This document shows positions 9,697-26,682 of a DNA stretch of 64,000 bases, one piece after another. A program made the position numbers and the translations under genes. The DNA lies in NCBI GenBank assembly GCA_963664225.1, contig OY760937.1, positions 5,664,001 to 5,728,000 of the forward strand, in the 5' to 3' direction. The notes under the pieces are model-generated. The model saw nothing but the letters and a program-made list of their open reading frames with translations, ran no database searches and was not told where the DNA came from. Within the stretch, counting starts at the first letter, position 1, and every line of letters starts with the position of its first letter. Source of the DNA: Verrucomicrobiia bacterium. Lineage in GTDB: Bacteria > Verrucomicrobiota > Verrucomicrobiia > Limisphaerales > UBA1319.

Positions 9697-11259
9697 ATGA
9701 GAACTGACATTGGAGGGGCGCAAAAACGGGCGGGGAACCCCTGTTTTGCCTGGGGGCGAATCGGGTTGCGGGATGTATTATGGCTCTGGCTTTTGGGGAT
9801 GGCATTTGGTGTCCACGCGCAATTCGATGAGATTCAATCACGCATCTCCGAGTTCGTGCTGGATAATGGCATGAAATTCATCGTTCTGGAGCGGCATCAG
9901 GCTCCGGTGGTTTCCTTTTACACTTACGCGGATGTTGGCTCGGCTCAAGAGGTGGAAGGCACCACCGGATTGGCGCATCTTTTCGAGCACATGGCATTCA
10001 AGGGAAGCCAGAAAATTGGGACCAGGGATTATGAAAAGGAGCAATCAGCCCTTGCGAAGGAAGATGCGGCCTATGCGGCTTTTTCGGCAGCGCGCCGACA
10101 GGGGGCGTCAACGGAGGTTTTGAAGCCGCTTGAGGAGGCGTTTCAAGCGGCACAGGCCGAGGCGGGAAAATGGGTGGTCAAGGGTGAATTTGACGAGGCG
10201 GTGGAACGCGCGGGGGGCAGGGGACTTAACGCCAACACGGCTTCAGACCGAACCGTCTTTTTTTTCAGTCTGCCTTCCAATGAGTCGGAACTCTGGTTTT
10301 ATTTGGATTCGGAACGGTTTTATGAGCCGGTGCTGCGCGAATTTTACAAGGAACGCGATGTCGTGATGGAGGAACGGCGCCTGAGTGTGGAAGGCAATCC
10401 CATTGGAAAACTGATCGAGGAGTTTTTGTCTGTTGCCTACAAGGCGCACTCCTATAAATCACCGACCATCGGATACATGAGCGATTTGCAGAATCTCACG
10501 CGCGGTGATGCCCGGGATTTCTTCAGCAAATACTATGTTCCCAGCAATTTGACGGCGGTGGTTGTGGGAGATGTGGATGCCCCCCGGATACGGGCGCTTG
10601 CGGAAACCTATTTTGGGAGAATTCCCCGAAAACCAGCTCCAGAGCCTTTGCGGACCGTTGAGCCGCCACAAGCGGGTGAACGCTCTTTCAAACTGCGTCT
10701 GCAATCCCAGCGGGTCAGCCTGGTTGGCTATCACAAGCCGGGCATTCAGCATCCGGATAACGCGGTTTATGATGCCTTGGGCAGCTTGTTGAGCGAGGGC
10801 CGCTCCTCCCGTTTATATCGAAGCCTGGTGCGCGATCAGAAAATCGCGGTCGAAGCCGGAGGATTCTCGGGATTCCCGGGCCAAAAATATCCAGGAGTGT
10901 TTTTGTTTTATGCCTTTACTGCTCCCGGGCACGAAAATGCGGAGGTGGAAAAGGCTTTGGATGGTGAGATCGAGAGGCTATGCAAGGAATTGGTGTCTGC
11001 GGAGGAGTTGGACGGGGTTAAGAGACGCGCACGCGCCAATCTGTTGCGTCAATTGGATGACAACGCCGGACTGGCCATGCAACTGGCGGATTGGCAGGGG
11101 TTGACGGGGGATTGGCATAATCTGTTTCGGCAACTGGACAAGATCAATGCGGTGACGCCTGCCGACATACAACGTGTGGCCAAGGCAACGTTCAAGGAAA
11201 TCAATCGCACGGTCGGCACGATAGAACCAGCGCAGCCCAATGCGGAATCGGCACAATAA
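9697..11259 (+). CDS. M16 (pitrilysin/insulinase) zinc peptidase, catalytic subunit
   Basis: Inverted Zn motif 'HLFEH' in 'TGLAHLFEHMAFKGS', 'LNANT', 'ERDVVMEERR', 'YYVPSN', 'SSRLYRSLV'; hydrophobic signal-like N-terminus. Confidence 0.92.
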   Translation: MRTDIGGAQKRAGNPCFAWGRIGLRDVLWLWLLGMAFGVHAQFDEIQSRISEFVLDNGMKFIVLERHQAPVVSFYTYADVGSAQEVEGTTGLAHLFEHMAFKGSQKIGTRDYEKEQSALAKEDAAYAAFSAARRQGASTEVLKPLEEAFQAAQAEAGKWVVKGEFDEAVERAGGRGLNANTASDRTVFFFSLPSNESELWFYLDSERFYEPVLREFYKERDVVMEERRLSVEGNPIGKLIEEFLSVAYKAHSYKSPTIGYMSDLQNLTRGDARDFFSKYYVPSNLTAVVVGDVDAPRIRALAETYFGRIPRKPAPEPLRTVEPPQAGERSFKLRLQSQRVSLVGYHKPGIQHPDNAVYDALGSLLSEGRSSRLYRSLVRDQKIAVEAGGFSGFPGQKYPGVFLFYAFTAPGHENAEVEKALDGEIERLCKELVSAEELDGVKRRARANLLRQLDDNAGLAMQLADWQGLTGDWHNLFRQLDKINAVTPADIQRVAKATFKEINRTVGTIEPAQPNAESAQ

Positions 11260-12770
11260 TGGGAAGGAGAGATTTGATGAAAACATTACATTCTTTTATG
11301 GGGCAGACCATCGGGCGCTACGCTTTGGCGTTTCTTTGTGTTGGGATTGTCGTTGCAGCGATACCTGTCAGAGCCGAAAAACCCGTCGATTCGTACAAGG
11401 ATCTGCAATATCCGCCTCTGAATAATCTGCAGATACCCCAACCCAACCGCATCGAATTGGGCAATGGAATCGTACTGTTTTTGATCGAGGATCACGAGTT
11501 GCCGATGGTCAATGTTTCGGTGTTGATCCGGGGTGGGACACGGAGCGAACCGGTGGCCAAAGCAGGCGTGGCTGATTTGTGCGGAACGGTGATGCGCACC
11601 GGGGGGACGGCGAGCCGCCCGGGTGACAAGCTGGACGAGGAATTGGACCGATTGGGAGCGGCGGTCGAGACGGGCATGAGCGACGACCTGGGCTCGGCAA
11701 GTGTATCCGTTCTGAAGGAAGACACAGACAAGGGACTGGCGATCCTGTCCGATCTATTGCAGAATCCCGCCTTTCCTGAGGAGAAAATTGAACTCGCGAA
11801 GATTGGTATCCGGGATTCAATTGCGCGCCGCAATGACAATCCTGGCGGGATCGTTTTTCGCGAGTTTGAACGTATTCTTTTTGGAACAAACTCGGCTTAC
11901 GGTCACCAGCCGGAATACGCCACCGTGGATTCCATCAAGCGCGACGATTTGATCGCATTTTACAAACAGTTTTACCAACCGGAGAATTTGATCGTGGGAG
12001 TCTGGGGTGATTTCAAAGCCTCTGAAATGCAGGCAAAAATCGAAGGAACACTAGGAGCGTGGAAAAAAGGAGGGAATCCAAAGCCTGCAATTCCAGCCGT
12101 GGACACCGCCGTGGAACGGTCCGGGACTTATTACATCGGCAAAGAGGACATCAATCAGACCTGGATAGTGGTGGGGCATTTGGGCGGCCAAAGGAACGAC
12201 CCCGATTATTATGCGCTAAACTTAATGAATCGCATCCTGGGCGGCAGCATGGCCTCGCGCATGTTCAGCAACATCCGTTCGGACATGGGACTGGCCTATA
12301 ATATCCGTTCCATTTGGAACGCCGAATGGGATCATCCGGGCGAGTTTATCGCCAGCGGCAGCACAAAAGCAGGAACGACCGTCAAGATGTTGAACGCCAT
12401 GAAGCATGAGATTCAGCGATTGACTGAGGAAGAGGTGACCGATGAGGAATTGTCACGCGCCAAGGACGGTGTCCTTAAGGGATTCGCTTTTGAGTTTGAT
12501 TCCACAGGCAAGGTGGTGCAGCGAATGATGAATTACGAGTTCTACGGGTATCCACACGATTACCTTCAACGCTTCCGTGAGAATATCGAAAAAGTCAGCC
12601 GGGCCGATATTCTGAACGCGGCTAAAAAACATCTTCATCCCGATCAATCGATCCAATTGCTTTTGGGCCGGGAAAAGGATTTTGACCAGCCGCTGTCAAC
12701 TCTGGGGAAAGTCACTCCGGTGGATATCACAATTCCCGGAGCGCCAGAGGCTGATTCTACGAATAAATAG
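11259..12770 (+). CDS. M16 peptidase non-catalytic partner subunit
   Basis: M16 fold without HxxEH; R/Y pair in 'SRMFSNIRSDMGLAY'; signal peptide; start overlaps or abuts the upstream stop (alternative ATG at 11277). Confidence 0.88.
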   Translation: MGRRDLMKTLHSFMGQTIGRYALAFLCVGIVVAAIPVRAEKPVDSYKDLQYPPLNNLQIPQPNRIELGNGIVLFLIEDHELPMVNVSVLIRGGTRSEPVAKAGVADLCGTVMRTGGTASRPGDKLDEELDRLGAAVETGMSDDLGSASVSVLKEDTDKGLAILSDLLQNPAFPEEKIELAKIGIRDSIARRNDNPGGIVFREFERILFGTNSAYGHQPEYATVDSIKRDDLIAFYKQFYQPENLIVGVWGDFKASEMQAKIEGTLGAWKKGGNPKPAIPAVDTAVERSGTYYIGKEDINQTWIVVGHLGGQRNDPDYYALNLMNRILGGSMASRMFSNIRSDMGLAYNIRSIWNAEWDHPGEFIASGSTKAGTTVKMLNAMKHEIQRLTEEEVTDEELSRAKDGVLKGFAFEFDSTGKVVQRMMNYEFYGYPHDYLQRFRENIEKVSRADILNAAKKHLHPDQSIQLLLGREKDFDQPLSTLGKVTPVDITIPGAPEADSTNK

Positions 12771-12932
12771 GTGGAGTTGGCATCGCGAACGGAATGCTTG
12801 ACCTCTTGAATTCAATCCTATTCCAAAGGTTTCCAATTTGACGGCGTTGGAACTCTGAGGTTTATTCGTGAATGGTCTAAATCTCAGGTATGCCGGATTG
12901 GTTGCACGGCCTGACAGTGGACTGTGCTGCCG

Positions 12933-13715
12933 ATGAACGAAAACAAGCCGATGATATTGTTGTGCCGCTGCTCCCGCGGCGATGTCTCCCATGCGCAAGC
13001 TCAGGAACGCATGGCTCGCGCCCTTGAAGCGGCGCAACTGACTTTCCTGACTGTCGATGATTTGTGCGGACTGGCCGCACTCAAGGATCCTGTTTTGCGC
13101 GAGGTATTGGACAATCATTCCACGACCGTTCTGGCGTGCCATCCCCGCGCCGTTAATTGGTTGATTCGTTCGAGTGGTTCCCAAGCCAATCGAGCCACTC
13201 TTTTAAATTCGCGCGATGAGGCGGCCGAGCCAATTGTCGCACGCCTTCTTGAAACGGGTCTTCCTTCCGGCGATTTCACCTCAATTGTATTCAAGAAAGC
13301 CGGCGAATGGGTTCCATGGTTTCCGGTGATCGACTATGATCGCTGCAAGAATTGCAAACAATGTTTGAGCTTTTGCCTCTTCGGAGTATATGGGTTGGAT
13401 GCGGAGGGTCGTGTATCGGTGGCTAATCCCCAAGGGTGCAAGACCAATTGTCCGGCCTGCGCACGGATTTGCCCTGACGTTGCCATTATTTTTCCGAAAT
13501 ACAACCAGGCGCCAATCAACGGTGCTCCCATCGTGGACGAAAGCTCCGAGCGAGCGAAGGTCAAAGTCAATGTTCAGGAAATTCTGGGCTCTGACATTTA
13601 TGGGGCGTTATCGGAACGCAAGAAGAAAGCCCGGTCTCTGCTGGTCAAGAAATCAGCCAGTCCTGGCGGCCTTGATTTGAACGCACATCAGCCTGCATCG
13701 CCACTCAAACCCTGA
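12933..13715 (+). CDS. Fe-S protein: HdrA-N-terminal-like Cys module plus 2x[4Fe-4S] ferredoxin domain
   Basis: 'CKNCKQCLSFC' and 'CKTNCPACARICP' ferredoxin motifs; N-terminal 'LLCRCS...DLCG...LACHPRA...NSRD'. ORF track start is GTG 12924. Confidence 0.8.
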   Translation: MNENKPMILLCRCSRGDVSHAQAQERMARALEAAQLTFLTVDDLCGLAALKDPVLREVLDNHSTTVLACHPRAVNWLIRSSGSQANRATLLNSRDEAAEPIVARLLETGLPSGDFTSIVFKKAGEWVPWFPVIDYDRCKNCKQCLSFCLFGVYGLDAEGRVSVANPQGCKTNCPACARICPDVAIIFPKYNQAPINGAPIVDESSERAKVKVNVQEILGSDIYGALSERKKKARSLLVKKSASPGGLDLNAHQPASPLKP

Positions 13716-13723
13716 TATTGTCC

Positions 13724-14917
13724 ATGATGCTCCAATTGGCCCGCCGGTTTCTTACCGAACCTGACAAACGTTTGCTTGCGAAACTGGCATGGAATTGCGG
13801 ATGGAAAGGCATGCTGGCCATCAACGCTTTCAATCGGCGTCGCAAACGGGGCGTTTATTTTCCGGCCTTTGTTTTTTTATCGGTGACCAACAAGTGCAAT
13901 CTACACTGTCAAGGTTGCTGGGTTTCAGTGAATAGTCCGCCCCGGGTGTTGGATGGTGGGACTCTTGATCGCGTGGTTACAGAATGCAAGGCGCAGGGGG
14001 CTTCGTTTTTCGGAATTCTTGGGGGTGAGCCATTACTGCACCCGGAAATCTTCGACGTGATCTCCAGACATGGAGACTGCTATTTTCAACTCTTCACCAA
14101 TGGAACTTTATTGACGGATGAGGTGGCTGCGAAATTGAGGCGGTTGGGCAATGTCACGCCTTTGATCAGTGTCGAGGGCAGCGAGCAGGTCAGCGACGAA
14201 CGACGGGGTGGCAATGAAGTCTATCGCAGGTCAATGAGCGGGATTGATGCCTGTCGGCGCAACCGGCTCTTTTTCGGCGTGGCCACGAGCGTTTGCCGGT
14301 CGAACTTTTCAGATTTGGTTTCGCGCAAATTTGTCGATGAATTGATTGCGCGTGGAGCGCATTATTTGTGGTATTACATCTACAGGCCCGTGGGGGCGGA
14401 TCCTTCCCCGGAATTGGCGCTTTCAGAAAATGAAATTGTGGAATTGCGTCAGTTCATGGTTAACATCCGGGCAGAGGCGCCCATTGTGGTGGTGGATGCC
14501 TATTGGGATCACGAAGGGCGCGCCTTGTGTCCGGCAGCCACGGGCATCAGTCATCACATCGGTCCGGGCGGGGATGTCGAGCCGTGCCCGGTGGTCCAGT
14601 TCGCGCGGGAAAATATTGGTGACGGCTCGCAAATGGTGAAACAAATCACCGAGTCCAAGTTCCTTGAGCGGTTCAGGGAATTTTCCAGCAGTGCAACGCG
14701 TGGCTGCGTTCTCATGGATCATCCAGAGGCGTTGCGGCAGTTCTTGATCGAGCAAAACGCAAAGGACACGACAGGTCGAGGTACCGGACTCAAGGAGTTG
14801 GCAGGAATGGCAACGCTACCCTGCCATCACGTTCCGGGTCGTGAAATTCCTGAAAAGCAGTGGATGTATCGGTTTGCCAAGAAACACTGGTTCTTTGGTT
14901 TCGGGGCCTATGGATGA
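13724..14917 (+). CDS. Radical SAM enzyme with SPASM/twitch-like C-terminal domain
   Basis: 'TNKCNLHCQGCW' (CxxxCxxC), 'GGEP', 'FTNGTL', C-terminal 'CPAATG...IGPGGDVEPCP...RGC'. ORF track start is TTG 13718. Confidence 0.92.
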   Translation: MMLQLARRFLTEPDKRLLAKLAWNCGWKGMLAINAFNRRRKRGVYFPAFVFLSVTNKCNLHCQGCWVSVNSPPRVLDGGTLDRVVTECKAQGASFFGILGGEPLLHPEIFDVISRHGDCYFQLFTNGTLLTDEVAAKLRRLGNVTPLISVEGSEQVSDERRGGNEVYRRSMSGIDACRRNRLFFGVATSVCRSNFSDLVSRKFVDELIARGAHYLWYYIYRPVGADPSPELALSENEIVELRQFMVNIRAEAPIVVVDAYWDHEGRALCPAATGISHHIGPGGDVEPCPVVQFARENIGDGSQMVKQITESKFLERFREFSSSATRGCVLMDHPEALRQFLIEQNAKDTTGRGTGLKELAGMATLPCHHVPGREIPEKQWMYRFAKKHWFFGFGAYG

Positions 14918-14960
14918 GGCATTGAATACAGCACATGATTTCCTATAGATTTCAAAGATC

Positions 14961-16625
14961 GTGATGACGCCAAAAACATCTCCGCGCAAGCGTCTGGCAC
15001 AGGATGCTTCGGCATCGCATCACCCGCGAGAGGAGGGAAACTACGGCGTGCCCGCGCAAAAATCGGTGCGGGAGGCGGTGCGCGCATCCGTCCGTCAATA
15101 CGTGCGTCAATTGGAATTGGTGCCACCCTTATCAATGGAGGAATTGCGGGAGCATACAGACGCCCTATTGCAGAACAACGGCCTCGACCATGTCTATCGG
15201 GATTTTATCACTGTATTGGTGGGAAATGAAGTGTGGTGGAATACGATGGCGGGCATTCCATTTGAACGGCGCGTTTTAATGCTGCCGCAATGCCTGAGGA
15301 TCAAATCGGATTGTCCGGCGGTCATGGACGAATTGGGATTGTTATGCGAGCAATGCGGGCAATGCCCCACCGGGGACATTCAAGAGGAGGCCGAAGACTT
15401 GGGCTATGTGGTTCTGGTGGCGGAGGGAACCACCGTGGTGACCAAATTGCTTGAGCAAGGCAAAGTGGACGCGGTCATCGGCATCAGTTGCCTGTCGGTT
15501 CTCGAGCGCGCCTTTCCTCATATGGCCACACATGCGATCCCCGGAATTGCCATTCCCCTGGTTCGCGATGGTTGTGAAAACACCCAGGCGGATTTGGACT
15601 GGGTGCGGGAGGCGATCCATTTGAAGTCCGATGCCCGGTGGCTTGGACGCATCGACATCGAGCGACTGCGGATCGAGGTCGAGACCTGGTTCATGCCGCA
15701 CGCATTGCGGCCGTTGATTTGCCGCGAGGGAACAGAGACCGAAGATATTGCGCTTGATTGGCTCGCGGTTTCGGGCAAGAGGTGGCGCCCGGTTCTGGCT
15801 GCTTGTGTTTATAAGGCGCTGTCGGTCGAGGAGGAAGGTCAACCGGCGGAAAATATTCACAAGCTGGCAGTTGCCATGGAATGTTTTCATAAGGCCTCGC
15901 TGGTGCATGACGACATCGAAGATGAAGACGAGTTGCGGTATGGGAAGGAAACACTTCACAAGCGCCACGGAATACCCATAGCCCTGAATGTCGGCGACTT
16001 GTTGCTGGGCGAGGGTTACCGGTTGGTTGCGGAGTGTGGGGCCTCGCCTGCCCAGACGGCAACCATGCTGGGCGTTGTAGCGGAGGCTCATCGCAATTTG
16101 TGCCTCGGACAGGGTGAAGAGCTGTGTTGGATGCGCAATCCAACGGCCCTGTCATCGCGCAAGGTTCTCGATTTATTTCGACGGAAAACAGCGCCTGCGT
16201 TTGAAGTGGCGCTTCGGCTTGGGGCCATTCGCGCCGATGCCGGAAACGAGGTTGGGAGCGTGTTAAAAGCCTACAGTGAATCTCTGGGCATCGCTTTCCA
16301 AATACGCGATGACCTGGAGGACTTTTCCGGCAAGGACAATGACACCGAAGCGATGCGCCCTTCGATTCTTCACGCACTTGCTTACGAGAGCGCCACAGTT
16401 GCCATGCGGGATGTGTTGGAAGCCGCATGGAAGGATGGCAGGAACGCTGGAACTCAAAACGCCACGGTGCGGGAGTTGATGATGAACGAGCGGGCTGAGG
16501 AAAAGGCGCGTCAGTTGCTTGAGCATTACAAGAATGAGGCAATTCGCTCGCTGGGGCCATTGCGAAACGCTCAACTAAAAAGCCTTTTGCGTCGCGTGGT
16601 TGGAAAAATCGTTGGGTCGATTTAA
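14961..16625 (+). CDS. DUF116-trans-polyprenyl diphosphate synthase fusion
   Basis: Cys-rich DUF116-like 'RRVLMLPQCLR...CEQCGQC...IGISCL...GC'; then 'GKRWRP', FARM 'DDIED', 'GQ', 'KT', SARM 'FQIRDDLED'. Confidence 0.88.
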   Translation: MMTPKTSPRKRLAQDASASHHPREEGNYGVPAQKSVREAVRASVRQYVRQLELVPPLSMEELREHTDALLQNNGLDHVYRDFITVLVGNEVWWNTMAGIPFERRVLMLPQCLRIKSDCPAVMDELGLLCEQCGQCPTGDIQEEAEDLGYVVLVAEGTTVVTKLLEQGKVDAVIGISCLSVLERAFPHMATHAIPGIAIPLVRDGCENTQADLDWVREAIHLKSDARWLGRIDIERLRIEVETWFMPHALRPLICREGTETEDIALDWLAVSGKRWRPVLAACVYKALSVEEEGQPAENIHKLAVAMECFHKASLVHDDIEDEDELRYGKETLHKRHGIPIALNVGDLLLGEGYRLVAECGASPAQTATMLGVVAEAHRNLCLGQGEELCWMRNPTALSSRKVLDLFRRKTAPAFEVALRLGAIRADAGNEVGSVLKAYSESLGIAFQIRDDLEDFSGKDNDTEAMRPSILHALAYESATVAMRDVLEAAWKDGRNAGTQNATVRELMMNERAEEKARQLLEHYKNEAIRSLGPLRNAQLKSLLRRVVGKIVGSI

Positions 16626-16630
16626 GAGTC

Positions 16631-17566
16631 ATGGCTGACGCGGCATCCATAGTTCCAACAAGCAGCGAAGGAATGTTGGCGGTCATCCGCCAGGCTGCAA
16701 GCCAGTTGGAGCCGGATATTCACGACAGTCTCGAGGCCTTTTTGATGAGCCAGTGGACTGCGGCGGGCGGTGCTCGAAATCGCGCCGGCACTGCGGATCT
16801 CTATTACACGGTCTTTCTATTGGAATGTTGCCTCGGGATGGACCTGGCTATTCCGCAGCGACAAGTTCTCGAGTTTTTGAATGGATTTGGAACTGGTCAA
16901 TCCCTTGATTTTGTTCATCGGGCCTGTCTGGCGCGTTGCCGCGGAGTTCTTCCTGAAACCCAATCAGCATCGAACATAAACACTGTAATACTGCGAGGCC
17001 TTGAAGAATTCCGGCTTCCGGATGGCGGCTATAACCAGAATGCGTTGGATCCCGAACGCTGTGAGGATGGGCCGCTTTCGGGCGCGCTGTATGACGGTTT
17101 TCTCGCATTAATGGCTTGGGACGCATTAGGGGGTGTGTTGCCGCGTTCAGAGGAGTTTCTTCAATGGTTGAAAACGATCCAACCCTCTGGAGGTGGTTAC
17201 GGCAACGATGCGGGATTTCAAGCGCCTACCACGCCCGTCACGGCAGGCGCCGTGATGCTTATGGCGCGTCATGGTTTTCCAATACCCAATACAGTGGGCG
17301 ATTGGTTGATGGATCAGCATCAGAGCTTGGGAGGCTTTTTGGCAGCACCCATGGCACCCATGCCGGACTTGCTTTCCACAGCCACAGCATTGCACGCCCT
17401 GCATGTGTTAAAGCGTCCAATGGGAGAAGCAGGTTCAAAGTGTCTGGAGTTTGTCGAGTCCCTATGGGCGGAGGCCGGTGGTTTTCGAGGGTATCTGGAA
17501 GATGACCAGGCGGACGTGGAATATACCTATTACGGTTTGCTCGCTTTGGGTCATTTGGCACGGTAA
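16631..17566 (+). CDS. Prenyltransferase/squalene-oxidase-repeat protein (single alpha/alpha barrel, GGTase-beta-like)
   Basis: Repeats 'GGARN..ADLYYT', 'DGGYN', 'GGYGN', 'GGFLA..PDLLST', 'GGFRG..ADVEYTYY'. Confidence 0.8.
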   Translation: MADAASIVPTSSEGMLAVIRQAASQLEPDIHDSLEAFLMSQWTAAGGARNRAGTADLYYTVFLLECCLGMDLAIPQRQVLEFLNGFGTGQSLDFVHRACLARCRGVLPETQSASNINTVILRGLEEFRLPDGGYNQNALDPERCEDGPLSGALYDGFLALMAWDALGGVLPRSEEFLQWLKTIQPSGGGYGNDAGFQAPTTPVTAGAVMLMARHGFPIPNTVGDWLMDQHQSLGGFLAAPMAPMPDLLSTATALHALHVLKRPMGEAGSKCLEFVESLWAEAGGFRGYLEDDQADVEYTYYGLLALGHLAR

Positions 17567-17571
17567 TCGAC

Positions 17572-19494
17572 ATGAATTCAGGTTTAAGGATTCGTATTGA
17601 CAAGAGTTTGAAGCTGGTTCAGGGACAATTGCTTGAACAATTGCAGCCTGGGCGGGGCTGGGAGGGATATCTCTCCAGCAGTGCTTTATCGACGGCGGTA
17701 GCAGTTTTGGCACTCGCACATACCAACGCCGACGCTCATCAACGCTGGATTGCCGATGGTTTGGGTTGGCTGGCCGCCAATGCAAATGAAGATGGAGCTT
17801 GGGGTGATGCGCCGGGAAGTCCAAGCAACATGAGCACCACCTTGCTCTGCTGGTCCGCCATGGTTTGGTCACGTGATGGAAAGCATTTGTCGGCGGTGGA
17901 ACGGGCAGAGGAGTGGCTGCGTGTGAACTTGGGCGCGTTGGATGGAGACCACATTGCGGATGCAATTCTCCATTTTTACGGAAATGACCGCACTTTTTCG
18001 GCGCCGATTCTTACGGTGTGCGCTTTATCCGGAAGGCTTGGAAAGGGTTTGGAAGCATGGAGGCTGGTTCCGCAACTTCCCTTTGAGCTGGCCATTTTCC
18101 CATATCAGCTTTTCAGATGGCTCCATCTGTCCGTGGTCAGCTATGCCATTCCGGCATTGATTGCAATTGGCCTGGTCCGTCACCATCATGGCGGTTCCGG
18201 GTTCTCACCGCGTCGGATGTTTCGGGAACGCATCAAGAACAGAACGCTTGAGATTCTGGCGTCCATGCAGCCCCAATCGGGCGGTTATCTGGAGGCCACG
18301 CCACTGACGGGCTTTGTTGCACTGGGCTTGGCCAACTCAGGCTATTCCGGGCATCGAGTCACCAAGAAATGCGTGGAATTTTTGATCGCCTCAGCAAGGG
18401 AGGACGGCAGTTGGCCCATCGATACGAACCTGGCAACATGGGTGACGACTCAAGCTGTTAATCAAATTTCTGAGAAGGAAAATCCTTTATCTCGCGCGCA
18501 ATGTGATGGATTGCGCCAATGGCTTCTTGACCAGCAATACACCGTAGAGCATCCGTTCACGCATGCTCCTCCCGGTGGCTGGGCATGGACTGATTTGTCC
18601 GGCGGAGTGCCCGACGCGGACGACACCGCAGGGGCACTTCTGGCGTTGTTCCGTCTTGGCCCGGTGGATCAGCGCACACAAAAGGCTGCCAAGGCAGGTT
18701 TGCAGTGGCTTCTCGATTTACAAAATGGCGATGGGGGCATTCCCACCTTTTGCCGTGGATGGGGGAAGCTGCCGTTTGACCGTAGTTGCCCGGATATCAC
18801 GGCGCATGCGATGCGGGCATTCTGGGATTGGCGCAATTCGGTGGACGGTCCCCTGAAGAAACGCCTGGAAACAGCATTGGAGAAGGGACTTTCCTATCTC
18901 AAGAAATCCCAAACCGCGTCTGGTTCCTGGCTGCCGTTGTGGTTTGGAAACCAGGAGTCCAAGGGACATTCCAATCCGACTTATGGCACCTCTGCTGTGG
19001 TGATGTCGTTATGCGCCGTTGCGGCAGATCACCATGAGAAAGTAATGAATGCGCTGGAAAAGGGGTGTCAATGGCTGGTCTCCGCGCAAAATGCCGACGG
19101 GGGGTGGGGTGGGGATATTGGAGTCCGCTCAACAATCGAGGAGACTGCGCTGGCGGTTAGCGCGCTGGCCGAAGCAGGCATGGATTATGAAAGGTCCTAT
19201 CTCGCAGGAATTGAATGGCTCCTCAATCGCAGCCGGGAATGCACACAATGGCACCCGGCGCCAATCGGGCTTTATTTCGCATCGCTATGGTATTCCGAGC
19301 GGTTGTATCCGCAGGTATTCACAATGGGAGCGCTGACGCGAGCGGCCAAATGGATGAGCGAGGAAACGGGTCGTCTGCAGAAGGAAAGAATTAGCGGGTT
19401 TGATGGAGTGGCGCCAGTTCCGTGCAACGAAGGGCCCGAAGGAAATTCGGGTGGAAGCGCGGACAGACAAAAAGGCTCTCACCGCCGAGCCTGA
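17572..19494 (+). CDS. Class II terpene cyclase, squalene-hopene cyclase family (divergent)
   Basis: Protonation motif 'PDADDTA'; QW repeats (NEDGAW, REDGSW, QNGDGG, QTASGSW, QNADGGW); 'WEGYLSSS', 'SCPDITA', 'STIEETA'; 640 aa beta-gamma didomain size. Confidence 0.9.
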   Translation: MNSGLRIRIDKSLKLVQGQLLEQLQPGRGWEGYLSSSALSTAVAVLALAHTNADAHQRWIADGLGWLAANANEDGAWGDAPGSPSNMSTTLLCWSAMVWSRDGKHLSAVERAEEWLRVNLGALDGDHIADAILHFYGNDRTFSAPILTVCALSGRLGKGLEAWRLVPQLPFELAIFPYQLFRWLHLSVVSYAIPALIAIGLVRHHHGGSGFSPRRMFRERIKNRTLEILASMQPQSGGYLEATPLTGFVALGLANSGYSGHRVTKKCVEFLIASAREDGSWPIDTNLATWVTTQAVNQISEKENPLSRAQCDGLRQWLLDQQYTVEHPFTHAPPGGWAWTDLSGGVPDADDTAGALLALFRLGPVDQRTQKAAKAGLQWLLDLQNGDGGIPTFCRGWGKLPFDRSCPDITAHAMRAFWDWRNSVDGPLKKRLETALEKGLSYLKKSQTASGSWLPLWFGNQESKGHSNPTYGTSAVVMSLCAVAADHHEKVMNALEKGCQWLVSAQNADGGWGGDIGVRSTIEETALAVSALAEAGMDYERSYLAGIEWLLNRSRECTQWHPAPIGLYFASLWYSERLYPQVFTMGALTRAAKWMSEETGRLQKERISGFDGVAPVPCNEGPEGNSGGSADRQKGSHRRA

Positions 19495-19699
19495 GCGTGA
19501 AGAACGACATGGCTAAGACAAATAACCTAATCTGCCTGTTAAGTTAACTATAATAACCTGTCAAACGCCTTCGACACAGTTTGAGAGCCAACGGCTATAG
19601 TCTGGCAAATATTGCAAATATTGGCAATGCGAAAACATGAATTTGTTCATTTTGATTTTTCCATCGTCACCGAGGCCCCGGTTTAGTTAGATAAAGGGG

Positions 19700-20449
19700 A
19701 TGTTATCAGAAAAGCCATGGCAACCCGAGGCCGTGTGGAGGATGGTGATGGCTAATTTTGCCACGCTGTTTCTGGGAATGCTGGCCGCCAGCATTCTTAC
19801 GCGCCTGCTTGGTGGCTGGAACCGGAGTGATTTGGAGATGGTCCATTTTTCTTTAGTGGCCGCAAGTTTTCAAGGGGCGACGTTTGTTTTGGCAGCATTG
19901 TTGTGCCGTTCGCAGAAGGTGACATGGAATGAAGCTTTTGGAATTTCAAACCGGCCACTGCGCGCGCTGAGCATTGCCAGTGTTGTGGCGGTTGGCACTT
20001 TGATTGGGGCGATGATTTTAGGCGCCGTCGCCTCGGCGGTCATGCTGCAACTGGGGATGAAACCAGAAGCCCAACAAGCTGTGCAGATGTTGCAGTCGAC
20101 GGAATCGATCTGGCGGCGGGCATTTTATGGCCTGGTGGCCATTCTGATCGCGCCGGCTGCGGAGGAAATTCTCTTTCGGGGTCTGGTGTATCCCTCGATC
20201 AAACAGATGGGATTCCCAAGGCTGGCGTTATGGGGCACTTCTCTGATTTTTGCGGCAACACATGTCAATGCCATGGCACTTCTTCCTCTGACATTTGTGG
20301 CGCTCATGTTTACACTGTTGTATGAAAAAACGAACAATCTGCTCGCGCCGATTCTGGCCCATTCGATGTTCAACGCGGTCAATTTTGCAATTCTGATTTT
20401 TCAGAAGGATCTTACCAGTATCTGGGATTCGCTCTATGAACGAATTTGA
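19700..20449 (+). CDS. CPBP (CAAX/Abi) family intramembrane glutamic endopeptidase
   Basis: Multiple TM helices; 'APAAEEILFRG', 'FAATH', 'AHSMFN'. Confidence 0.9.
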   Translation: MLSEKPWQPEAVWRMVMANFATLFLGMLAASILTRLLGGWNRSDLEMVHFSLVAASFQGATFVLAALLCRSQKVTWNEAFGISNRPLRALSIASVVAVGTLIGAMILGAVASAVMLQLGMKPEAQQAVQMLQSTESIWRRAFYGLVAILIAPAAEEILFRGLVYPSIKQMGFPRLALWGTSLIFAATHVNAMALLPLTFVALMFTLLYEKTNNLLAPILAHSMFNAVNFAILIFQKDLTSIWDSLYERI

Positions 20450-21350
20450 TCTGATCAGGCTTCTGACGGCTGGCTTGCCCTCCAACGATACCACCATTTT
20501 GGGGGCTGGGGATGATTGTGCGGTTCTTGATCTGGGATTATCGGACCGCTGGCTGCTTTTTAAAACGGACGCCGTGGTTGAAGGAATTCATTATACTTCG
20601 GATGCCAAGCCGGAAGAAGTGGGCCACAAGGCATTGGCCAGGTGCCTGAGCGATGTCGCCGCCATGGCGGGCAAACCGGTGGCTGCGCTGGTTACGCTGG
20701 GCCTTCCGCAGGAGTATGATCCAAAATGGGCGCTGGCGGTTTACGCCGGCATGAGCGAATTGGCGCGACGCTATCGCGTGGCCATTGTGGGCGGCGAAAC
20801 CACAACGGTCCCTGAGCGCACATTGCTGTCTGTGGCGCTTTTGGGAACGGTGGACAAGAATAAATGCCTAAAGAGGTCGGGCGCCCTGGCGGGAGACGCC
20901 ATCTTTGTAACCGGCGAACTGGGCGGTTCCATTCAAGGAAAGCACCTTGACTTTGAGCCGCGCATGGAACAGGCACAGTGGCTGGCAACTCACTTTTCGA
21001 TCCACGCGATGATCGATGTCAGCGATGGTTTGGCGGGGGATTTGCGCCATATCACAAATTCCAGCGGTGTGGGCGCCGAACTCCTTGCGAGTGCGATTCC
21101 CGTGAGCGATGCGGCTCGCAAGGGGGGCAAGCCCCCAATGCAGGCGGCTCTTGAGGATGGCGAGGATTTTGAATTGTTGTTTACCGTTCCAGCGCGTGAG
21201 GCGGTTGCTTTGCTGGACGCCTGGAAATTGGAGTTCCCCGGATTGAAGCTTTCATGCATCGGGAAAATCACAAAGAATCCCGGCTTCATTCTGCATGAAG
21301 GGAACCGGACAAGGGACATTCTGGAGCATGGTTACACTCATTTCGCATAG
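20436..21350 (+). CDS. thiL: Thiamine-monophosphate kinase
   Basis: 'MNEFDLI', 'GDDCAV', 'KTDAVVEGIH', 'LSDVAAMAG', 'IDVSDGL', 'GEDFELLFT'. Confidence 0.95.
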   Translation: MNEFDLIRLLTAGLPSNDTTILGAGDDCAVLDLGLSDRWLLFKTDAVVEGIHYTSDAKPEEVGHKALARCLSDVAAMAGKPVAALVTLGLPQEYDPKWALAVYAGMSELARRYRVAIVGGETTTVPERTLLSVALLGTVDKNKCLKRSGALAGDAIFVTGELGGSIQGKHLDFEPRMEQAQWLATHFSIHAMIDVSDGLAGDLRHITNSSGVGAELLASAIPVSDAARKGGKPPMQAALEDGEDFELLFTVPAREAVALLDAWKLEFPGLKLSCIGKITKNPGFILHEGNRTRDILEHGYTHFA

Positions 21351-22525: not shown

Positions 22526-25030
22526 TTAAGAAGCCGAGGCTCCCGTCAACGCTCCTGCGGAAGGGGCGTTTTGCGAAAAACTCAACTTGTCTTTCTCGAG
22601 TGAAACAATAACGGGTTCGGTGCCGTGCAGTTTGCCTTTGAGAATCTCCTCCGCGAGCGGATCTTCGAGGTAGCGTTCCACCGCACGGCGCATTGGACGC
22701 GCGCCATAAGCGGGATCGTAGCCTTTTTCGATGATGAAGTCCCTGGCCATTTCCTCCAGCTTTAGTTTGATGTTTTTTGTCTTTAGACGCACTTCGAGCT
22801 TTGCGACTTCCAAATCCAGAATCTCAATCAGATCCGGCTTGGTCAGCGAGCGGAATACAATGACATCATCCAGACGATTCAAGAACTCGGGCTTGAACGT
22901 TTTCCTGGCTTCTTCCATCAGCCGTTCCTTCATCTTATCGTAGGACGAAGTTTCTGTAGTCGTGGTGAAGCCGATCGCACCCTGCTTCTTAATGGTCTCG
23001 GCGCCGACATTTGAAGTCAGCAAAATGACGGTGTTCCGGAAATCCACCGCGCGTCCCATGCTGTCGGTCAACTTGCCTTCTTCCAATATCTGCAATAACA
23101 CGTTCCAGACATCGGGATGGGCTTTTTCGACTTCGTCGAACAGGACTACGGCGTACGGTTTACGCCTGACCTGTTCAGTGAGTTGTCCGCCATCTTCAAA
23201 ACCGACATAGCCCGGAGGAGAACCAATCAGCCGTGATACGGTGAATTTTTCCATGTATTCGCTCATATCGAGCTGAATGAGGCACTTGGCGTCACCAAAC
23301 ATTGTCTCGGCCAGAGTCTTGGCCAGCAGGGTTTTCCCCACACCGGTCGGACCAAGCAGCATGAATGTGCCGATTGGCCGCTTCGGGTCTTTCAAATCAG
23401 CGCGAGAACGGCGCAAGGCTTTACTCATGGCGGTGACCGCATCGGCCTGTCCAACCACGGTGCGGGTCATGTCCTTCTCCATGTTCAACAGCTTTTGGGA
23501 CTCGTCCTGTTCCATGCGCCGCAAAGGAATGCCGGTCCATTTGGCGACCACTTGCAAAATGTCGTCTTCGTCAATGACCACGCGCTTCTCATCGCGGCTC
23601 GTGCGCCATGCGGACAGGATGGATTCCAAGTTCTCCTTGGCGTGCTTTTCCTCGTCGCGCATGGAAGCGGCCCCCTCAAAATCCTGTTCCTTGATGGCGC
23701 GTTCCTTGCGGGCCTTGATGGCCTCGATCTCGGATTCTATGTGTTTGACATCCGGGGGGCGGGTCATGGACTTAATACGACCACGGGACCCCGCTTCGTC
23801 CATCACGTCGATGGCTTTATCGGGCAGGAAGCGCCCGCTTATGTAGCGATCGGACAATTTGACGGCGGCATCGATCGCGCCATCCGTGATCTCGGCCTTG
23901 TGGTGCTCTTCATATTTTGGGCGCAAACCTTTGAGGATTTGCACCGCCTCATCAATCGAGGGAGCTTCGACCTTGACCGTTTGAAAACGCCGTTCCAATG
24001 CCGCATCCTTTTCGATGTATTTGCGGTACTCGTTGAGGGTGGTGGCTCCAATGCATTGCATCTCGCCACGGCTCAGGGCGGGCTTGATGATGTTCGAGGC
24101 ATCCATCGTGCCTTCGGCCGAACCAGCTCCAACGATGGTGTGCAGTTCGTCGATGAAAAGCAGGACGTTCTTGGCTCGCCGGATTTCATCCATGACCGCC
24201 TTGATGCGTTCCTCAAATTGGCCGCGATATTTGGTGCCGGCCACCATCAGCGCCAGGTCCAGAGTGATCACCCGCTTGTCGCGAAGGAGTTCGGGGACAT
24301 TTCCATGGGCAATCTCCTGCGCCAATCCTTCGACTATGGCCGTCTTGCCCACACCGGCCTCACCGAGGAGAACAGGGTTGTTCTTGGTGCGGCGGCAAAG
24401 AATCTGAATCACCCGTTCGATCTCATTCTGACGGCCGATGACCGGGTCCATCTCGCCTTTACGGGCGATTTCGGTCAGGTCGCGTCCGAAGGCCTTCAAT
24501 GCCGGTGTTTTTACATCGCCTTTCTTGTCTGGAACTTTTTCCGATCCTTCAGGTTGAGGCTGTTCCTCGCCGGCGGAATAATTCGGATCAAGCTCCTTGA
24601 GCACTTCCTGACGGGCCTGCTCAATATCAATATCCAAGTCTTTCAGGACTCGGGCAGCAACGCCGTCCCCTTCCCGGAGAAGACCCAGAAGAATGTGCTC
24701 GGTGCCCACGTAAGTATGATTCAACGCTTTGGCCTCTTTGGCCGCAAGCGAGAGAACCTTTTTGACCCTGGGAGTGTAGGGGATATTGCCAATGACTTTT
24801 TGATCAGGCCCGGTGCCCACCTTCTTCTCCACTTCCAACCGCACGGTCTCCATGTCGAGACCGAGGCGCTGGAGGACATTGACTGCGACTCCCTGGCCCA
24901 ATTTTATCAGCCCAAGCAACAAATGTTCAGTGCCCAGAAAATTATGGTTCAACCGGTCAGCTTCCTTGCGGGCCAAAGCCAGCACCTGCTGTGCGCGCGG
25001 TGTGAAATTATTTAAAGACTCATCACTCAT
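22526..25030 (-). CDS. clpC: ATP-dependent Clp protease ATPase subunit ClpC
   Basis: Clp-N repeats 'FTPRAQ..GTEHLLL'; Walker A 'GEAGVGKT' and 'GPTGVGKT'; UVR-type M domain; 'IGF' ClpP loop; 'YGARP'. Start at ATG 25030. Confidence 0.95.
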
Positions 25031-25046
25031 ACTCAACTTTACAGTG

Positions 25047-26162
25047 CTACGTCCTTGACGGTTTGTCCAGTGATGTTCCATCCTGGCCGGACGATTTAAA
25101 TTGCGGACGCTTTACCAGGTTCAACCTGTCCCGCATCATGTCGGCCCGGATCACATCCCGCTCTTCAGCGGTCATTTTTTCCGAAACGCTCTTTTGGAGG
25201 TGAGCGGGTTGAGTGACAATGAACAACTCGTCCATCAAGAAGCTTTCAACACCTGGAAAAAGGCCCAAATCCAGGCCCAACCTCATGAGAGAAAGCAAAT
25301 TCATTGTTTCTTTTGAGGAAATGCTGTGAGCGTTGGCCAGGATTCCATAGGCGCGGCCGATATGGTTAAGGACCATCTTGTCCTTCTTTTCCATCAAGGA
25401 GGCGCGGGCGTTTTCCTCGTGCTCGATCAATTGGGCCAGGACCTTGTTAAGGCGCTCCACGATCTCGTTTTCGCTTTCGCCCAAGGTCATCTGGTTGGAG
25501 ACCTGAAAGACATTGCCCAAGGCTTCGGTGCCTTCTCCGTAAAGGCCTCGAACCGCAAATCCGAGCTTGTTGACCGCCTGAATGATCTGATTGATCTGCT
25601 CGGACAGCACCAAGCCGGGCAGGTGCAGCATCGCGCTAACGCGAATGCCCGTGCCTACGTTGGTGGGGCAGGCCGTAAGATAACCCAGAGGGGGCACAAA
25701 TGCGTAATCAAGAGATTTCTCAAGCGAGGAATCGACTTGATCGATGGTCGCCCAGACCTGGCGGATTTGCAGACCGGGGCTGATGGCCTGCATTCGCAAG
25801 TGATCCTCCTCGTTGATCATCACGCAGATGGACTCGTCTTTGCTGATGACCACGCCACTGCCGACGCTTTTGGCGGCATGTTCGCGGCTGATCAGATGGC
25901 GTTCCACCAGAATCTGTTTGTCCAGTGCCTTGAGATCGTCCATGGAGGTCGAGAATGCGTTTTGCATCTGCGGCAGACTTTCCACAGCCGTTTTAATGAG
26001 TTCGAGGGATTGGATTCGATCGTTTTTCTTGGCCCATCCTGGAAAGGGAAGATCCCTGAGATTTCGCGCCAGGCGCACCCGGCTCGAGAGCACGATACGG
26101 TGATTCGGGCCATTGCGTTTGCTGGCCTCAGCGGGCGAACTTAGAAATTCCTGCAATGTCAT
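25047..26162 (-). CDS. mcsB: Protein arginine kinase McsB
   Basis: 'SSRVRLARN', 'LVERHLIS', 'INEEDHLR', 'YLTACPTNVGTG', 'VRGLYGEG', 'FQVSNQ'. Confidence 0.95.
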   Translation of the reverse strand: MTLQEFLSSPAEASKRNGPNHRIVLSSRVRLARNLRDLPFPGWAKKNDRIQSLELIKTAVESLPQMQNAFSTSMDDLKALDKQILVERHLISREHAAKSVGSGVVISKDESICVMINEEDHLRMQAISPGLQIRQVWATIDQVDSSLEKSLDYAFVPPLGYLTACPTNVGTGIRVSAMLHLPGLVLSEQINQIIQAVNKLGFAVRGLYGEGTEALGNVFQVSNQMTLGESENEIVERLNKVLAQLIEHEENARASLMEKKDKMVLNHIGRAYGILANAHSISSKETMNLLSLMRLGLDLGLFPGVESFLMDELFIVTQPAHLQKSVSEKMTAEERDVIRADMMRDRLNLVKRPQFKSSGQDGTSLDKPSRT

Positions 26163-26166
26163 ACTA

Positions 26167-26682
26167 TTAACCGGCCACGTTCTGCGTCATTTGATCGCGC
26201 GTCTTTTTTATTTCGTCCCGCAAAAAGGCGGCTTCCTCGAAATTCTCGACTTTGATGGATTCCTGGAGTTGCTGCTGAAGCTTTCGCAGGCGCTCATTCA
26301 AATCCTGAACCTCGCGCAATCCGTGAGGCACTTTTCCAGTGTGTTTCAAGCCCTTGTGCATTGATTTGAGCAGTGGTTCGAGCGGTTCGGCAAAAACGGA
26401 GTAGCAGAAAGCGCAACCCAGCCGTCCGGTCTTCTTGAAATCCGCGATCGAAAACCCGCATTTGGGACATTTGGCCAGATCCGCTTCGTCTGAACGAGTC
26501 TCGGATTCCTGCGGGGTCGCTGCCAGCCCTTTGAGCAGCCCAACCAGGGAGAATCCGGTTGGATCGTCAACGCCTTTGGCCTTTGAACATTGTTCGCACA
26601 AATCGACAGTCTGCATCTTGCTATCGATAATTTGTGTCAAATGCACCGAGGCTTCGTTCTTTTTGCACACATCGCACAACAT
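26167..26682 (-). CDS. mcsA: McsA, activator of McsB
   Basis: Four CxxC motifs (CDVC, CEQC, CPKC, CAFC), 'HTGKVP', C-terminal UVR 'ENFEEAAFLRDEI'. Confidence 0.93.
   Translation of the reverse strand: MLCDVCKKNEASVHLTQIIDSKMQTVDLCEQCSKAKGVDDPTGFSLVGLLKGLAATPQESETRSDEADLAKCPKCGFSIADFKKTGRLGCAFCYSVFAEPLEPLLKSMHKGLKHTGKVPHGLREVQDLNERLRKLQQQLQESIKVENFEEAAFLRDEIKKTRDQMTQNVAG

Follow-up and report, generated by a model that had tools for sequence, protein, structure and literature searches.

Specialists have flagged one clade as the main uncharacterized branch of the hopanoid/sterol cyclase family. It was defined as the 'SHC-like' group (SHC, squalene-hopene cyclase) by Santana-Molina et al. 2020 (PMC7306690), where its planctomycetal, verrucomicrobial and some Bacteroidetes members are said to keep the active site, a polyprenyl synthase gene is reported to lie usually near the SHC-like gene, and novel polycyclic triterpenes are suggested to await discovery. 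A 2025 preprint (bioRxiv 10.1101/2024.10.28.620730) treats the clade, for which it uses a length range of 550–700 aa, as one without established function or structure, places it as sister to the cyclases of regular epoxy-polyprenyl chains, and finds on its stem a raised substitution at the SHC-type dimer surface; it also holds that knowledge of the clade's substrate would help to settle how these cyclases came to use the substrates they do, and it names Gemmata obscuriglobus as a tractable carrier. Here we examine a five-gene module whose cyclase, judged by family cut-offs and published trees, fits this clade. It lies in a Verrucomicrobiia bacterium (Limisphaerales; UBA1319; assembly GCA_963664225.1), on contig OY760937.1, within positions 5,664,001–5,728,000, a stretch of 64,000 nt hereafter called the window. 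The five genes, coding for a ferredoxin-like protein, a radical S-adenosylmethionine (SAM) enzyme, a fusion of a DUF116 domain with a polyprenyl diphosphate synthase, a prenyltransferase-beta-like barrel and the cyclase, are one co-inherited evolutionary unit. On balance, the evidence favors a module that makes and cyclizes its own isoprenoid chain independently of squalene, an Fe-S/radical step being part of the route; the product would be a ring-bearing polyprenoid, most likely a membrane lipid.

With the SHC-like clade of these two papers, the module shares an SHC homolog of about 600 aa with beta and gamma domains and conserved catalytic residues, a polyprenyl synthase nearby, and a taxonomic spread: its homologs are likewise named from Verrucomicrobiota, Planctomycetota, Kiritimatiellia, Lentisphaerae and Acidobacteriota (Bryobacteraceae among the close cyclase homologs), with Sumerlaeia in addition. 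It differs in that radical SAM, ferredoxin, DUF116 and barrel genes, all present in the module, go unmentioned in the accessible portions of both papers, where the terms 'radical SAM' and 'DUF116' occur zero times. The Bacillus sporulenol pathway (HepS/HepT heptaprenyl diphosphate synthase, YtpB and SqhC) offers a parallel for the overall logic, in that a dedicated synthase makes a regular head-to-tail chain for a divergent SHC-family cyclase without squalene (PMC7306690). No YtpB-type enzyme was seen in the module, which instead has the radical SAM, ferredoxin, DUF116 and prenyltransferase-like barrel components, and its cyclase is not SqhC-like by NCBIfam scores. The epoxy-polyprenyl cyclases of the sister clade (Lon15, AtoE, Bra4 and PlaT2) cyclize regular C20 to C40 chains but start from an epoxide, the synthesis of which needs O2 (bioRxiv 10.1101/2024.10.28.620730), whereas the module has no linked monooxygenase and an intact alkene-protonating DxDD motif. 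Finally, the hopanoid pathway (HpnCDE, SHC and HpnH) likewise makes an isoprenoid lipid by means of both an SHC-fold cyclase and a radical SAM enzyme; however, the module's radical SAM enzyme reaches 41 bits against the HpnH cut-off of 225 (TIGR03470), its cyclase 94 against 431 for SHC, and the true hopanoid genes lie elsewhere in the genome.

A further point of contact is a 2025 preprint on a Bipolaricaulota isolate, where a single cluster is listed with a DUF116 protein and a polyprenyl synthetase as well as IspH, an SHC and an 'adenosyl-hopene transferase'. Our literature search, with most subscription journals outside it, found neither a characterized pathway that matches the module nor a link of radical SAM enzyme or ferredoxin to this cyclase. 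Hence an earlier note on this DNA, made from its letters without database searches, was borne out in that no match to an already characterized pathway turned up within that scope; its word 'undescribed' has to be given up, as the cyclase clade and the nearby synthase were on record in 2020 and 2025 and the DUF116::synthase fusion in 2015. The locus is a real, ordinary member of a recognized pathway that lacks characterization, the cyclase and synthase of which had already been reported.

The module consists of five plus-strand open reading frames (ORFs) spanning 12924–19494 of the window, separated by gaps of 2, 43, 5 and 5 bp. The five co-directional, closely spaced genes described in the earlier note are therefore real, with ORFs, gaps and Pfam domains all in agreement, and the motifs it reported—intact first and second aspartate-rich motifs (FARM and SARM), a DxDD motif and Cys-rich Fe-S modules—are present, the Fe-S content being larger than it had claimed. 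None of the five proteins reaches a named NCBIfam equivalog. Scans of 12500–20600 for sigma-70 promoters and terminators gave counts close to those expected from shuffled sequence and did not clearly mark the ends of an operon.

Evidence for a functional unit comes from the phyletic distribution of the genes. Among 40 genomes from the same order, orthologs of the cyclase were found in 26, of the fusion in 27 and of the radical SAM enzyme in 25; cyclase and fusion occur together in 24, the cyclase without the fusion in 2, the fusion without the cyclase in 3 (genomes that are 75–91% complete), and neither in 11. An even sample of 300 genomes from the phylum, identical in the fusion and cyclase searches, has 36 genomes with the fusion, drawn from 19 families, and 35 with the cyclase ortholog, every one of which also has the fusion; the lone fusion carrier without a cyclase (G267) has a partial fusion match. 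The radical SAM ortholog is found in 32 of these 36 carriers. The coupling extends to gene position: fusion and cyclase lie within about 3 kb of each other in 19 of the 35 phylum genomes with both, and in the window the fusion is upstream and ends 947 bp before the cyclase starts. The full order ferredoxin–radical SAM–fusion–barrel–cyclase is kept in 6 of 14 phylum-level loci, which were chosen from the 19 genomes with a fusion–cyclase spacing of about 3 kb or less, and in 5 of 25 order-level loci; a further 11 of the latter keep ferredoxin, radical SAM and fusion together, with or without the barrel, and have the cyclase elsewhere in unrelated contexts. Co-conservation of the five genes, which had been posed as a test in the earlier note, is thus seen in the counts for fusion, cyclase and radical SAM enzyme, in the 19 families and in the recurring gene order. 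That five unrelated genes came to be adjacent by chance is next to impossible on these data. The cyclase does stand alone in many relatives, as such an accident would have it; however, all 35 cyclase carriers of the phylum sample have the fusion, a near-perfect phyletic coupling, the gene order recurs in distant families, and proteins exist in which the barrel and the cyclase are fused. The phylum-wide co-occurrence and the recurring order contradict a chance adjacency.

The cyclase (17572–19494, plus strand, 640 aa) is an SHC-like class II enzyme of beta-gamma architecture, with Pfam matches to SQHop_cyclase_C (4e-34) and SQHop_cyclase_N (1.3e-13). Its DxDD motif reads DADD at residues 348–351 (window 18613–18624), and in an alignment of 56 family members each of D348, D350, D351 and T352 is retained by 90% or more. 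A profile of the family matches the Alicyclobacillus acidocaldarius SHC (1gsz) at 1e-42 and aligns the DxDD motif as well as the positions of SHC D447/H451 and Y495. Since these positions are conserved, initiation by protonation of a double bond is plausible. The protein is nonetheless distinct by sequence from SHC, oxidosqualene cyclase (OSC) and tetrahymanol synthase: it scores 94.1 bits against a cut-off of 431.1 on the SHC model TIGR01507, 122.8 against 322.7 on TIGR01787, 86.7 against 851 on TIGR03463 and 56.4 against 500 on TIGR04277. The earlier note's claim of a non-canonical cyclase accordingly holds, by the TIGR01507 shortfall and by an identity of 23% to the genome's own SHC. At E ≤ 1e-30, 626 representative clusters match the cyclase. 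Its orthologs end near residue 600, the last 40 or so residues here forming an unconserved tail; the apparent in-frame stops within relatives' cyclase matches proved not to be real, being normal gene ends near query residue 600 in five loci, and in L027 the stretch over the N-terminal region of the cyclase reads open. A 425-aa version of the cyclase (P0275; 100% identity, 66% of the query covered) would be an alternative gene call or assembly starting near M216, with the N-terminal third lost; the 640-aa frame is open in the window.

The chain supplied to this cyclase would come from the DUF116::polyprenyl-synthase fusion (14961–16625, plus strand, 554 aa; DUF116 2.2e-32, polyprenyl_synt 2.9e-43). 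Its trans-polyprenyl diphosphate synthase domain (PF00348, 148.4 bits against a cut-off of 27) occupies residues 268–492 (window 15762–16436) and carries the FARM as DDIED at residues 317–321 (window 15909–15923) and the SARM as DDLED at 450–454 (window 16308–16322), both conserved in 121 sequences. Conserved in the same 121 sequences is the segment CFHKASLxHDDIED, which places Ala and Ser at positions -5 and -4 before the FARM; such small residues are the pattern of medium- and long-chain synthases. The domain matches every NCBIfam chain-length class weakly and reaches no equivalog of defined length. The genome holds two ordinary polyprenyl synthases elsewhere, and thus the fusion can be seen as a dedicated third one. 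The Cys-rich DUF116 domain (residues 77–219, window 15189–15617; 112.1 bits against a cut-off of 25) has seven invariant cysteines in 25 orthologs, including the CxxCxxC motif C129-x2-C132-x2-C135, and both domains are present in 120 of the 120 best homologs of the fusion. In its AlphaFold model (predicted local distance difference test (pLDDT) score of 80), three helices accompany a flavodoxin/Rossmann-like core, the Cys-rich loop being of low confidence; no PDB match was obtained at Foldseek E ≤ 0.001, and the best VIA-align hits (Z up to 7.2) are generic Rossmann/flavodoxin-like folds. In agreement with this, DUF116 has been predicted to be a flavodoxin-like electron-transfer domain, and its fusion with a polyprenyl synthetase was noted in Pirellula staleyi (Makarova et al. 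2015, PMC5898192). The archaeal form of that paper (arCOG02078) has in common with the present one the Pfam domain, the CxxCxxC motif with further conserved cysteines and the flavodoxin-like fold; it has two N-terminal transmembrane helices and occurs near sulfite/nitrite reductase genes, whereas the module's version has three predicted N-terminal helices with many charged residues and is fused to the synthase.

Whether the cyclase needs squalene can be approached through the distribution of squalene-forming genes. The earlier note saw no hpn or squalene-synthase genes, which is true of the window, where neither an SQS_PSY (squalene/phytoene synthase, PF00494) gene nor a canonical SHC gene is found within the 64 kb, and untrue of the genome, which codes elsewhere for adjacent HpnD and HpnK, one more SQS_PSY protein, a true HpnH (C1:1243862-1244965, 363.8 bits on TIGR03470) and two bona fide SHCs (688.8 and 635.7 bits on TIGR01507). 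Across the phylum sample, a PF00494 gene accompanies the module in 6 of the 36 carriers and is absent from the other 30; moreover, with the module cyclase as query at E ≤ 1e-8, no second match of canonical SHC type appears in any of the 36. Since 30 of the 36 carriers have no SQS_PSY gene at all, the best reading is a squalene-independent cyclic polyprenoid, and the simplest is that the dedicated synthase supplies the cyclase substrate. The main alternative on this point is an accessory triterpene cyclase that takes squalene from HpnCDE elsewhere to hopene or another triterpene, its neighbors raising the farnesyl diphosphate supply or modifying hopanoids. The HpnD, HpnK, HpnH and two SHCs of this genome would suit it, as would the facts that the closest solved structure by sequence is an SHC and that a 'triterpenoid'-type hidden Markov model detects the clade's gamma domain (bioRxiv 10.1101/2024.10.28.620730). 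Yet the cyclase is kept in 35 of 36 phylum carriers, 30 of which lack PF00494, lies far below every SHC, OSC and tetrahymanol-synthase cut-off, and tracks the dedicated synthase one-to-one, making this alternative highly unlikely. The earlier note's proposal of a self-contained route to a non-hopanoid cyclic polyprenoid is, in sum, supported by co-inheritance and by the 30 squalene-synthase-free carriers and weakened by the hopanoid genes of its own genome. Its second option, a new route to a squalene-like precursor, might also be drawn from these genes, and its label 'anaerobic' would be a reasonable, if conjectural, gloss; the organism also has an ordinary hopanoid pathway. The second of the canonical SHC genes was observed twice with identical scores, at C1:1591811-1593613 (-) and C1:5778709-5780511 (+), the latter copy about 51 kb past the window end; this doubling could have arisen by inverted duplication of a large segment, or be an assembly repeat close to where the contig ends.

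The two remaining Fe-S components are the radical SAM enzyme and the ferredoxin-like protein. The radical SAM enzyme (13718–14917, plus strand, 399 aa; PF04055 Radical_SAM 1.6e-17, 64.6 bits against a cut-off of 29.5) has its CxxxCxxC motif at C60/C64/C67 (window 13895–13918), invariant in 29 sequences, and three further cysteines, C271, C290 and C330, invariant in the same set. Together with a weak match to SPASM (PF13186; 15.2 bits against a cut-off of 21.5, E 0.027), these three suggest a single auxiliary cluster of twitch or partial-SPASM type; the C-terminal tail is rich in aromatic residues. Its top NCBIfam matches, NirJ2 and AhbD, stand at about 64 bits, far under their cut-offs; among PDB entries, SkfB comes closest by sequence (8.5e-12). 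The radical SAM gene is the most tightly linked of all to the synthase gene. In one locus of the phylum sample (L070, G213:C4), the usual radical SAM gene goes unmatched and a different radical SAM gene, of 502 aa, stands between the ferredoxin and cyclase genes; an Fe-S flavoprotein gene (Fer2_4/Fer4_20/Pyr_redox_2) was noted beside this cluster. In light of the tight linkage to the synthase and this apparent replacement, radical chemistry seems integral to the pathway.

The ferredoxin-like protein (12924–13715, plus strand, 263 aa; Fer4_10 2e-06, 28.1 bits against a Pfam cut-off of 25.5) is coded by an ORF that opens at 12924, with 12933 being the first ATG in that frame. It carries a 2x[4Fe-4S] domain from C141 to C183 (window 13344–13472), both motifs of which (C141/C144/C147/C151 and C172/C176/C179/C183) are invariant in 19 orthologs, and an N-terminal domain with four more invariant cysteines (C14, C16, C48 and C72), such that all 12 cysteines are invariant in this set. 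At E ≤ 0.1, Pfam recognizes nothing in the first 125 aa, and against NCBIfam the protein yields weak matches to PorD/HdrA-type ferredoxins only. In most loci its gene sits beside that of the radical SAM enzyme or of the synthase, and it is this linkage that speaks for the earlier note's suggestion that the ferredoxin reduces the radical SAM enzyme. In L032, L044–L049, L055 and L058, the protein was seen to match as two pieces, the N-terminal Cys domain and the 2x[4Fe-4S] domain, about 360–450 nt apart; either a domain has been inserted between them or the gene is divided in two.

The barrel (16631–17566, plus strand, 311 aa; Prenyltrans 1.2e-08) is a single alpha/alpha toroid with an invariant PxPDLLSTATxLHA motif in 16 orthologs, and it matches no NCBIfam family. 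Its model (pLDDT 92.9) is best matched by the beta subunit of geranylgeranyltransferase-I (Z 24.3, root-mean-square deviation 2.9 Å over 265 residues) and then by farnesyltransferase beta (Z 23.6), the beta-only cyclase 8paj (20.6), SHC (19.0) and MstE (18.7); a protein of this modeled fold probably binds a prenyl diphosphate. Protein prenyltransferase beta subunits hold zinc through Asp, Cys and His ligands. None of the barrel's cysteines is invariant among the 16 aligned orthologs, C271 being kept in at least 90%. Among 150 representative cyclases, the barrel is fused to the cyclase N-terminus in P0123, P0156, P0172 and, more weakly, P0262. These properties bear on a second alternative, in which the product is a meroterpenoid or other prenylated small molecule, the barrel moving the (cyclized) polyprenyl group to an acceptor that the radical SAM enzyme makes or tailors. 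It is the most serious competitor, if still an unlikely one: the barrel model lies nearest the protein prenyltransferase beta subunits (Z 22–24), with class II cyclases behind (Z 17–21), the invariant motif contains Asp and His, and Lon15 and MstE of neighboring clades use meroterpenoid substrates (bioRxiv 10.1101/2024.10.28.620730). Conversely, no head-group gene, UbiA/ABBA prenyltransferase or alpha-subunit gene is conserved beside the module in the annotated loci (for the alpha subunit, no genome-wide search was made), the 16 aligned orthologs of the barrel share no invariant cysteine, and the module, rather than forming a sporadic biosynthetic island, is passed on in many families and has surroundings of housekeeping type. 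As separate observations, a gene for a CobW/COG0523-type GTPase, a metallochaperone family, adjoins the barrel gene in L021 (6267–7079), and in L075 (8013–9613) such a GTPase and a glycine-cleavage-H-like protein are coded between the ferredoxin and radical SAM genes.

Taken together, the favored squalene-independent route might proceed as follows. The synthase domain, with small residues in place of the bulky 'floor' of short-chain enzymes, would lengthen an allylic primer into an all-trans polyprenyl diphosphate of medium or long chain. The radical SAM enzyme would modify this chain without O2, probably before cyclization, since its gene is the one most tightly linked to that of the synthase; the three-cluster ferredoxin-like protein would pass electrons to it, probably via the Cys-rich DUF116 domain tethered to the synthase. 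As to the reaction itself, we tentatively consider, while holding it doubtful, the formation of a C–C bond or the reductive processing of the allylic diphosphate end. The barrel would bind the prenyl diphosphate and work in complex with the cyclase, in which the DxDD aspartate, aided by conserved helpers of the SHC His/Tyr type, would protonate the terminal double bond, whereupon the chain would fold into several rings.

A number of observations weigh against this route. Three genomes (G213, G263 and G336) have the fusion and the cyclase with no match to the module's radical SAM enzyme, and the five-gene set is interrupted or dispersed in 20 of the 25 order-level loci, with the cyclase often found by itself in unrelated contexts. 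Because the genomes under comparison are related to one another, the co-occurrence counts make them look more independent than they are. A complete hopanoid gene set accompanies the module in this genome and, going by weak SHC-type matches, in most of its order, and squalene is still a possible substrate of the cyclase in this genome. Finally, the closer resemblance of the barrel to protein prenyltransferase beta subunits than to cyclases suits prenyl transfer in a meroterpenoid pathway equally well.

These patterns also invite a bolder interpretation, which we regard as quite unlikely. The module could be a bacterial source of long-postulated cyclized regular polyprenoids, compounds such as tricyclohexaprenol that have been proposed as parents of the tricyclic terpanes of rocks and oils, and that would act as an O2-independent stand-in for hopanoids or sterols in squalene-less lineages of the Planctomycetes-Verrucomicrobia-Chlamydiae (PVC) group and Acidobacteriota, with new radical SAM/ferredoxin/DUF116 Fe-S chemistry on a polyprenyl diphosphate. 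That chemistry could be a reductive or radical processing that replaces the O2-dependent epoxidation of the sister clade; it could also be a new C–C bond. We know of no established biological source for cyclized polyprenols of this type. Tricyclohexaprenol has been called the parent of tricyclic terpanes with up to 30 carbons in a geochemistry paper. Were the product a polycyclic regular polyprenoid, it would represent a new class of bacterial membrane lipid and could supply a biological source for sedimentary biomarkers of debated origin. In any event, the cyclase is inherited together with a dedicated chain-building synthase, a radical SAM enzyme and as many as three Fe-S proteins, and the genomes concerned mostly have no squalene/phytoene-synthase gene; what had been an orphan enzyme becomes part of a compact, expressible and testable gene set.

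The immediate surroundings of the module in the window raise one more alternative. Two M16 peptidase genes (9697–12770) lie directly upstream and a gene for a CPBP/Rce1-like intramembrane protease (19700–20449) directly downstream; in a system resembling those of ribosomally synthesized and post-translationally modified peptides (RiPPs), the M16 pair and the protease would process a peptide or protein, the barrel would prenylate it and the SPASM-like radical SAM enzyme would cross-link it. This location of the peptidase genes fits such a scheme, as do the radical SAM enzyme's best matches, which include the peptide maturases SkfB and PqqE, and the prenyltransferase-beta fold of the barrel. It is very improbable all the same: the gaps of 2–43 bp leave no room for a precursor-peptide ORF among the five genes, and the barrel has no conserved Cys. 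The idea was dropped because the neighbors are not conserved, M16 and CPBP matches being absent by tblastn from all 54 related loci searched, with a single CPBP gene recognized by Pfam about 2 kb from the module in L064.

A more recurrent neighbor is found outside this genome: genes for BamB-like PQQ_2 beta-propellers border the module in 10 of the 14 phylum-level loci, and the proteins they encode have an N-terminal membrane anchor or a signal peptide. The observation was recorded for L063–L069, L072 and L074–L076 and, in the module's own genome, for C1:439603-440805, the closest PQQ_2 ortholog there (40% identity, 2e-97) being unlinked to the module. One cyclase homolog (P0178, 1092 aa) is a fusion of cyclase, hydrophobic helix and PQQ_2 domain. 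Such a PQQ_2 protein is a candidate for a sixth component of the pathway, located in the periplasm.

Farther along the window, genes on the minus strand at 22526–26682 code for a ClpC-type AAA+ chaperone, then an ATP:guanido phosphotransferase (McsB-like) and a UVR-motif protein (McsA-like), an arrangement best known from Firmicutes. Also on the minus strand, at 52249–54729, is a gene for an 826-aa protein with a hydrazine-synthase-alpha middle domain (PF18582, 7.9e-21), near which lies a gene for a NapC/NirT-type cytochrome c (58565–60043, minus strand); a similar HZS_alpha protein is coded in the locus of a relative (L038).

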